From: an uncultured Clostridia bacterium
GTDB lineage: Bacteria; Bacillota; Clostridia; TANB77; CAG-508
DNA: 64,000 bases
NCBI GenBank assembly: GCA_910589185.1
Contig: CAJUSU010000001.1
Span: 1,191-65,190 of the forward strand
Reading direction: 5' to 3'
DNA letters: not shown here
Content: a report on this DNA, generated by a model with database tools, continued

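Follow-up and report, generated by a model that had tools for sequence, protein, structure and literature searches.

The giant gene and its C-terminal cassette

The C-terminal cassette of the giant protein, an X-module, a dockerin and an M23 peptidase in its last 352 residues, begins in the codon phase of the gene at position 35956, which corresponds to residue 10092. The same locus was found in four assemblies (NCBI MAGs in three cases, a mouse-gut assembly from ENA in the fourth), at 99.4-99.98% nucleotide identity, and a protein of exactly 10,443 aa was called in two of these independent assemblies. Since both the locus and the protein length recur, we conclude that the giant gene is not an assembly artefact. 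The window, with a G+C content of 34%, is bacterial chromosome; genes downstream of the giant gene code for an SDR, Bax1-I, a CAP protein, rpoB, rpoC, gdpP, a sortase, rplI, dnaB, tilS, ftsH and a PBP.

A domain map of the giant protein was obtained by running Pfam on ten 1,000-aa slices, together with local iterative HMMs. Units of an RCC1 propeller and a Big_2 spacer, with a Big_2 period of 400-490 aa by iterative HMM, are followed by cadherin-like domains in tandem, all 23 of which are read as forming a stalk. The cassette (aa 10085-10443) and the N-terminus were the only regions left uncovered by the three repeat HMMs. A single hydrophobic segment (aa 14-34) was found in the entire protein, and its score in a 19-residue Kyte-Doolittle window, 1.7, is borderline for a transmembrane helix. 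Eleven full-length family members have in common a basic n-region and a hydrophobic core of 17-20 residues, followed in most of them by a [VAG]-x-A↓[TSD] site. Such a layout of n-region, core and AXA-like site is typical of cleavable Gram-positive signal peptides, and we infer that the signal peptide of the giant protein is cleaved after residue 31. If so, the protein would be retained on the cell solely via its C-terminus. No LPXTG motif occurs in all 10,443 aa, and no SLH modules were detected in the giant protein by Pfam; with neither of these and no second hydrophobic segment, sortase or SLH anchoring of the giant protein was dropped. The sortase gene, at 49874-50647, sits amid housekeeping genes.

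Features of the giant gene and its neighbours in the window (residues are those of the giant protein)
Feature	Residues	Position	Strand	Evidence or remarks
Big_3 stalk gene, 3' half		1..4359	+	Big_3 repeats, Pro/Thr-rich linker, C-terminal TM helix, ~85-aa tail
Small membrane protein, 161 aa		4895..5380	+	TM, Q/N-rich linker, ~65-aa domain; conserved between stalk and giant genes
Giant protein ORF	1-10443	5683..37014	+	Single uninterrupted frame, 10,443 aa, 1.12 MDa, pI 5.0
Signal-peptide-like N-terminus	1-31	5683..5775	+	Basic n-region MKLSKKLRKRRNKK, 17-residue hydrophobic core, V-A-A↓T site
RCC1 seven-bladed propeller + Big_2 spacer, ~17 units	~49-7909	5827..29409	+	Pfam WD40_RLD/RCC1/Big_2
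Cadherin-like beta-sandwich, 23 in tandem	7909-10084	29407..35934	+	Pfam PF12733; iterative HMM, 23 matches
X-module, CarboxypepD_reg-like beta-sandwich	10092-10196	35956..36270	+	Pfam 37.3 bits, cut-off 32.3
Dockerin	10197-10262	36271..36468	+	ScaA/CipA alignment, Foldseek; Pfam sub-threshold
Dockerin repeat 1		36283..36348	+	GDVVETGEIELDD; non-canonical
Dockerin repeat 2		36397..36459	+	Canonical EF-hand loop
Linker	10263-10299	36469..36579	+	KWVNP strand (conserved), basic helix, disordered stretch
M23 metallopeptidase	10300-10443	36580..37011	+	Pfam 92.1 bits
M23 motif HxxxD	10331-35	36673..36687	+	
M23 motif YAHL (YAH at 36820-36828)	10380-83	36820..36831	+	
M23 motif HHLHFE (HxH at 36940-36948)	10419-24	36937..36954	+	
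Intrinsic-terminator-like hairpin		37063..37106	+	20-bp stem, strong; directly past the giant gene's stop codon
Secreted CAP/SCP-domain protein		39349..39891	+	Pfam

In the first-pass annotation, the M23 domain was preceded by a CarboxypepD_reg-like module and a dockerin-like segment with one good and one weaker repeat. The first of these, the X-module, passes its Pfam cut-off and accounts for the beta-strands at cassette residues 2-93 in an AlphaFold2 model. The second stood on grounds other than its own Pfam score: the window's sequence reached 14.5 bits against Dockerin_1 (PF00404; cut-off 22.9, E 0.042), and orthologous dockerins from three relatives' loci exceed the cut-off (L030, 28.5 bits; L009, 23.8 bits; L052, 27.8 bits). 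Loop 2, D-F-N-G-D-G-I-V-D-A-K-D, is canonical, with positions 1, 3, 5 and 12 invariant, while loop 1, D-V-V-E-T-G-E-I-E-L-D-D, keeps positions 1, 9 and 12 and is without acidic residues at 3 and 5. Both family alignments (A1 and A2) show no variation in the D-N-D-D of loop 2 or in the D and L of repeat 1. The first loop of the CipA type II dockerin, GDIVKDNSINLLD, resembles repeat 1 of the window, GDVVETGEIELDD, and both have V at position 3. Conservation in dockerin helix 3 reaches at least 90% for R, I, L and K and is complete for N and Y; the conserved surface residues R, K, N and Y appear to exceed what calcium binding needs. A single phmmer alignment spans both modules of the Acetivibrio cellulolyticus ScaA X-module-dockerin dyad, or XDoc (4wi0_B, E 2e-6), and the Clostridium thermocellum CipA XDocII (2b59_B) aligns to the cassette in the same register. 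Foldseek matched the entire XDoc chains 5g5d_B and 4u3s_B, both taken from structures with bound cohesin (E ~1e-7, TM 0.65-0.66). Because the ScaA/CipA alignment, Foldseek, the conserved loop and the orthologue scores agree, we read the pair as an XDoc despite the sub-threshold Dockerin_1 score, and on alignment and model it is of the type II-like kind.

The linker that follows is modelled as a strand (cassette residues 172-175) and a helix (179-199), with pLDDT <50 at 199-206. Its W127 is invariant and its P130 at least 90% conserved in A2, and its length differs between homologues. The AlphaFold2 model of the cassette combines a high pLDDT (90.1) with a low pTM (0.54), which suggests that the M23 domain is free to move relative to the XDoc.

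The M23 domain scored 92.1 bits against Peptidase_M23 (PF01551, MEROPS M23; cut-off 28.7), with an E-value of 2.6e-26 and coverage of profile positions 2-95 of 96. In phmmer searches of the PDB it matched active M23 enzymes (best E 8.4e-15), with HTGID, YAH and HLH aligned to their counterparts, and the best enzyme matches were StM23, Pgp3, NMB0315, LytM and lysostaphin. By established numbering, the zinc ligands of LytM are H210, D214 and H293, and its catalytic histidines H260 and H291. In the window's domain H10331, D10335, H10382, H10420 and H10422 are all present, and in an alignment of 45 cassettes, 46-64% identical, the residues H240, D244, H291, H329 and H331 (cassette numbering) are invariant. 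The cassette model superimposed on LytM (2b13) in Foldseek with an rmsd of 1.7 Å over 134 columns; the M23 fold also matched 3slu, 6muk and lysostaphin at E-values of 1e-9 to 1e-10, NMB0315, ShyA and lysostaphin being matched at E ~1e-10. Since Pfam, the PDB alignment, the invariant residues and the fold agree, we conclude that this is a bona fide M23 domain with intact catalytic residues, for which enzymatic activity is predicted. The same evidence bears out the first-pass annotation, in which intact HTGID, YAHL and HHLHFE motifs had been taken as the mark of a non-degenerate M23 domain.

The best partial matches in NCBIfam were of DD-endopeptidase/carboxypeptidase types (Pgp3, 89.7 bits; MepM, 68 bits), with weak similarity to SpoIIQ (61.5 bits), EnvC and NlpD. 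None of the NCBIfam equivalog cut-offs was reached by the M23 domain, all scores being far below, and assignment as a SpoIIQ or Pgp3 orthologue was dropped in part for this reason. The nearest M23 relatives are stand-alone, membrane-anchored enzymes of ~220 aa from the same or related Clostridia lineages; a lineage-specific GGDPxTDPNPG insertion before HxH is common to them and to the cassette M23, and no spoIID/spoIIID synteny was found around them, which was the other ground for dropping the orthologue assignment. XDoc-linked M23 domains form essentially one clade, with a mean identity of 65% versus 48% among the stand-alone relatives.

The protein family, its gene cluster and the stalk head

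Nearly all homologues of the cassette are from uncultured Clostridia of the gut (human, goat, deer, rabbit and mouse, the conspecific assemblies being from mouse). Among 1.84 billion representatives searched, 89 proteins matched at E ≤1e-30; about 40 of these, as representatives at 50% identity and with lengths of up to 7,235 aa, have the cassette at the extreme C-terminus. At every locus it closes an ORF, usually of >3,600 aa and still open at the edge of the DNA examined. A scan of genome contigs gave a best match of 57% identity, and the window's own species was not among the matches. With an XDoc HMM, two arrangements were seen: in 19 proteins a full-length XDoc precedes M23 and lies 142-177 aa from the C-terminus, and in five a full-length XDoc stands alone, 2-15 aa from it. 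Giant XDoc-only paralogues (L025 and L030) exceed 3,400 aa and have no M23. Where present, M23 is always the last domain, even when ~600 aa of GLUG repeats lie between it and the XDoc. There are several such proteins in a genome or locus: L001, L010 and L012 have tandem pairs, and one rabbit MAG has three.

The N-terminal passengers differ and include RCC1, GLUG and ALK_LTK glycine-rich types; the window's protein, from gut Clostridia and with >10,000 aa and ~17 propellers, is an RCC1-type giant. In Gram-positive surface proteins, modules close to the wall or anchor show this pattern of a constant C-terminus with a variable N-terminus; polymorphic or contact-dependent toxins show the opposite pattern, with a variable C-terminal tip. 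No immunity-like gene (FemABX-like, for example) was found among the window's downstream genes. A polymorphic toxin was considered and dropped, given the conserved M23 tip (65%), the missing Fem-like gene and a source on such toxins (PMC3482391) that is silent on M23 and dockerin.

The giant gene belongs to a conserved cluster, which runs from a gene for a Cadherin-like protein with an XDoc, through the stalk gene (head, Big_3 and transmembrane helix) and the small membrane protein gene, to the giant XDoc-M23 gene. This order was found in L059, which is from the window's species, in L065 and partly in L067; the same genes are rearranged in L005. The product of the first gene is a Cadherin-like protein of ~420-450 aa with its own terminal X-module and dockerin. 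Two XDoc clients flank the stalk gene, and there are several per genome. One orthologue, in L066, is flanked by rplL and rpoB, and neither the stalk gene nor the other cluster genes are nearby. The 161-aa membrane protein had no significant family match, and its assignment as a cohesin or PepSY inhibitor was dropped on that account; a very weak SpoIIIAH-like match (E 0.0027) covers its TM/linker region only. Besides the window, six loci encode a secreted CAP protein downstream of XDoc-ended giant genes (L003, L005, L022, L062/L063 and L064, at 50-64% identity), and the window's CAP gene has its own consensus promoter at 39093-39121.

The whole stalk gene was read in the conspecific L059 (at 556-9465 of that locus), which is 99.95% identical over window positions 1-15380. 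Its product has 2,969 aa and consists of a signal-peptide-like segment, a ~200-aa head, 29 Big_3 domains, a Pro/Thr-rich linker, a TM helix and a tail; the signal peptide and head (aa ~112-320) are encoded 3.6-4.2 kb upstream of window base 1.

Whether a cohesin accompanies the dockerin, a point raised by the first-pass annotation, received a divided answer. Pfam Cohesin (PF00963) was found in none of the window ORFs or ~10 kb of extra flank, in none of 44 large ORF pieces (~44,000 aa) beside the cassette genes of relatives, among the 25/30 families listed, and, with E-values allowed up to 0.1, in none of another nine neighbours, among them the whole Big_3 protein. Two CipA type I cohesins, used in jackhmmer as approximate queries (one of which matches 1aoh with 296 bits), retrieved nothing in 951 kb of loci, and an XDoc profile search returned short fragments only, with no co-occurring cohesin. 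A profile of five stalk heads (A6), on the other hand, had type II cohesins as all of its top nine PDB matches. The best was A. cellulolyticus ScaB (3l8q_A, E 2.7e-6), followed at 0.0026 by 4u3s_A/4wi0_A, the cohesin partner in crystals of the same ScaA XDoc to which the cassette is most similar; the others were 3fnk_A, 3ghp_A, four more ScaB entries and C. thermocellum 5g5d_A. The cohesin 'x-Y-D-x-x-x-L-x-P' strand falls inside the aligned stretch. The same top eight matches were retained when a sixth sequence was added, and a reversed-profile control gave a single unrelated match (E 0.37). Per-domain E-values were 0.003-0.1, and the alignment covers only the N-terminal ~85 of ~200 head residues. 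Single-sequence PDB searches with three heads gave nothing relevant, Pfam Cohesin was silent on the head, and hhalign of the head against type I cohesin gave 1% probability. An AlphaFold2 head model from a two-sequence alignment had a pLDDT of 31; a homology search with the head found two proteins, and a metagenome scan a single locus. Because the match is modest (at profile level, from a shallow profile, with partial coverage and Pfam silent), the designation of the head as cohesin-like is regarded as moderately supported.

Proposed topology of the fibre and possible action of the peptidase

Two topologies had been put forward in the first-pass annotation: one in which an N-terminal anchor holds the protein and M23 is distal, and one in which the C-terminus is docked to a cohesin-bearing surface protein and the propellers point outward. 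The cohesin-like head of the neighbouring protein, the XDoc-only family members and the variable N-termini favour the second. Our preferred reading, put forward tentatively, is that the giant protein forms a Sec-exported fibre, with the cassette as the end by which it docks on the cohesin-like head. In this scheme, the X-module and dockerin would make up a type II-like plug, which we infer to enter the head in a calcium-dependent manner. The head would be located at the N-terminal, membrane-distal end of a stalk made of 29 Big_3 domains, a proline-rich wall-spanning linker, a TM helix and a short cytoplasmic tail. Because the N-terminal signal peptide of the giant protein would be cut off, the 23 cadherin-like domains and ~17 RCC1 propellers would stretch away from the junction. 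If a beta-sandwich is taken to span ~4 nm and a propeller ~5 nm, a rough estimate is ~100 nm for the stalk and ~250 nm for the giant protein.

The M23 domain, probably a zinc-dependent peptidoglycan DD-endopeptidase acting on mDAP-type cross-links, would dangle from the XDoc on a flexible linker of ~40 residues. Since it is tethered to the XDoc, it would sit, mobile, at the junction of stalk and fibre, outside the producer's wall. Instead of the sacculus of the producer, its target may then be peptidoglycan that the fibre touches, on sister cells or others; we lean slightly towards foreign walls because the head is distal on the stalk, and the stand-alone, membrane-anchored M23 kin fit action on the own wall equally well. 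By a speculative extension to which we give little credence, the two-protein fibre (>1.4 MDa, several hundred nm) would hold the endopeptidase ~100 nm off the producer's wall as a contact-dependent 'fishing-line' that captures and lyses gut neighbours, the producer being shielded by distance and not by an immunity protein.

Action in cis on the producer's own peptidoglycan is the rival that fares best, and we consider it unlikely. Here the XDoc-M23 end would be cell-proximal; M23, the last part to leave Sec, would cut or grip the wall so that the 1.1-MDa fibre passes or stays held, and the XDoc would dock to a wall-level partner or be merely a structural module. The kinship with membrane-anchored Clostridia enzymes that share GGDPxTDPNPG fits such a role, as do an M23 that is conserved and not polymorphic, its invariably terminal place even past the GLUG repeats, and the lack of an immunity-like gene nearby. 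The giant XDoc-only paralogues, however, do without M23. The candidate socket, moreover, is at the far tip of 29 Big_3 domains, past the wall-spanning linker, so that the assembled junction would be outside the wall.

The first of the two topologies, with an uncleaved N-terminal signal anchor, a ~250 nm projection and XDoc-M23 as a distal warhead lysing bacteria, is in our view slightly less likely still. Some M23 bacteriolysins, lysostaphin and zoocin A for example, are indeed secreted, the catalytic site is intact, and the hydrophobic segment is borderline for a TM helix. Giant proteins have also been tied to predation (10.1101/2023.11.21.568195, section 12). Yet toxin tips vary, whereas in this family the tip is conserved and the N-terminus varies, and AXA-like sites lie past the hydrophobic core in most relatives. 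Characterised C-terminal XDocs, those of CipA and ScaA, anchor to cell-surface cohesin (PMC12484212), and the cohesin-like socket is encoded next door, in a protein of the same cell.

It is quite doubtful that there is no cohesin partner at all, in which case the dockerin-like segment would have only a structural, calcium-binding role, as do the dockerins of many non-cellulosomal proteins, the cohesin match would be spurious, and the protein would be shed into the medium or matrix. The empty Pfam and type I jackhmmer searches and the window's sub-threshold dockerin agree with it, but the head profile matches solely type II cohesins with a clean reversed control, helix-3 R, K, N and Y are conserved beyond calcium-binding needs, and several XDoc clients occur per genome, two of them beside the stalk gene.

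C. difficile SpoIIQ retains its zinc site and is not known to be catalytic. Despite this precedent, the weak NCBIfam similarity to SpoIIQ, EnvC and NlpD and the very weak SpoIIIAH-like match of the small neighbour, it is very improbable that M23 is a non-catalytic LytM-type domain that recruits or activates another hydrolase, as EnvC, NlpD and SpoIIQ do, since zinc ligands and both catalytic histidines are invariant (n=45), the best matches are active enzymes and the NCBIfam scores are all far under family cut-offs.

On the preferred reading, with the C-terminus docked, RCC1 giants, hitherto treated as featureless repeat arrays, gain a definite end for anchoring, a candidate partner from the adjacent gene and a predicted enzyme activity. 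If the plug-socket pairing is true, cohesin-dockerin assembly reaches megadalton surface fibres in non-cellulolytic gut bacteria. A conserved and apparently active peptidoglycan hydrolase on such a fibre may serve wall passage, cell-cell interaction or antagonism. The XDoc and the Big_3 head are two small expressible modules, and they offer a handle on organisms that resist culture.

Comparison with known systems

The closest parallel is the type II cohesin-XDoc anchoring of cellulosomes, in which CipA XDocII pairs with SdbA/OlpB/ScaC and ScaA XDoc with ScaB cohesins (PMC12484212). In the window, too, an X-module is packed against a two-repeat dockerin at the C-terminus of a very large, repetitive secreted scaffold, and a cohesin-like module is present on a separate cell-bound protein from the same cluster; as in CipA, the first dockerin loop is non-canonical, and the folds match. 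Unlike in cellulosomes, there are no cellulases, CBMs or enzyme-binding cohesins in the window, the scaffold is made of RCC1 propellers and cadherin-like domains, and the XDoc precedes a catalytic-type M23 domain. In place of SLH or sortase anchoring, the putative anchor relies on a TM helix at its C-terminus and has one distal head, carried on 29 Big_3 domains; this cohesin-like head is too divergent for Pfam PF00963. A cysteine peptidase of Ruminococcus flavefaciens likewise has its peptidase module and an X-dockerin dyad on one chain and docks to a surface cohesin, the wall-anchored ScaE (Levy-Assaraf 2013, as cited in PMC12484212). As described there, that protein differs in being papain-like and small and in belonging to the type III ruminococcal system with sortase anchoring.

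With LytM, lysostaphin, Pgp3, MepM/ShyA and NMB0315 the cassette M23 shares the HxxxD/HxH zinc site, both catalytic histidines and the fold, and with Pgp3 also a helix ahead of the domain. It differs from these active M23 enzymes in being fused to a docking module, which it follows as the tail of a giant protein, and in the GGDPxTDPNPG insertion. No wall-targeting domain (SH3b, LysM or other known) was found on the M23 of the cassette.

Cohesin-dockerin pairing outside cellulose degradation is known from other gut Firmicutes, in the R. bromii amylosome and in toxin and glycosidase complexes of C. perfringens; those assemblies bring together glycoside hydrolases. To our knowledge, there is no report of one that links a membrane stalk with a megadalton adhesin-like fibre and a peptidoglycan peptidase, and full-text literature searches found no description of an XDoc-M23 fusion or a cohesin-headed Big_3 anchor.

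The giant protein itself resembles the RCC1-type giants of gut Clostridia/Oscillospiraceae described in section 12 of West-Roberts et al. (10.1101/2023.11.21.568195), being from gut Clostridia, longer than 10,000 aa, RCC1-dominated and predicted to be extracellular. As portrayed in that section, such giants consist of a single repeating domain from end to end, with no mention there of an anchoring or catalytic end; the window's protein adds to this description a cadherin-like stalk, an XDoc, an M23 domain and a putative cohesin partner. The parts are known; what is new is their combination and its proposed use.

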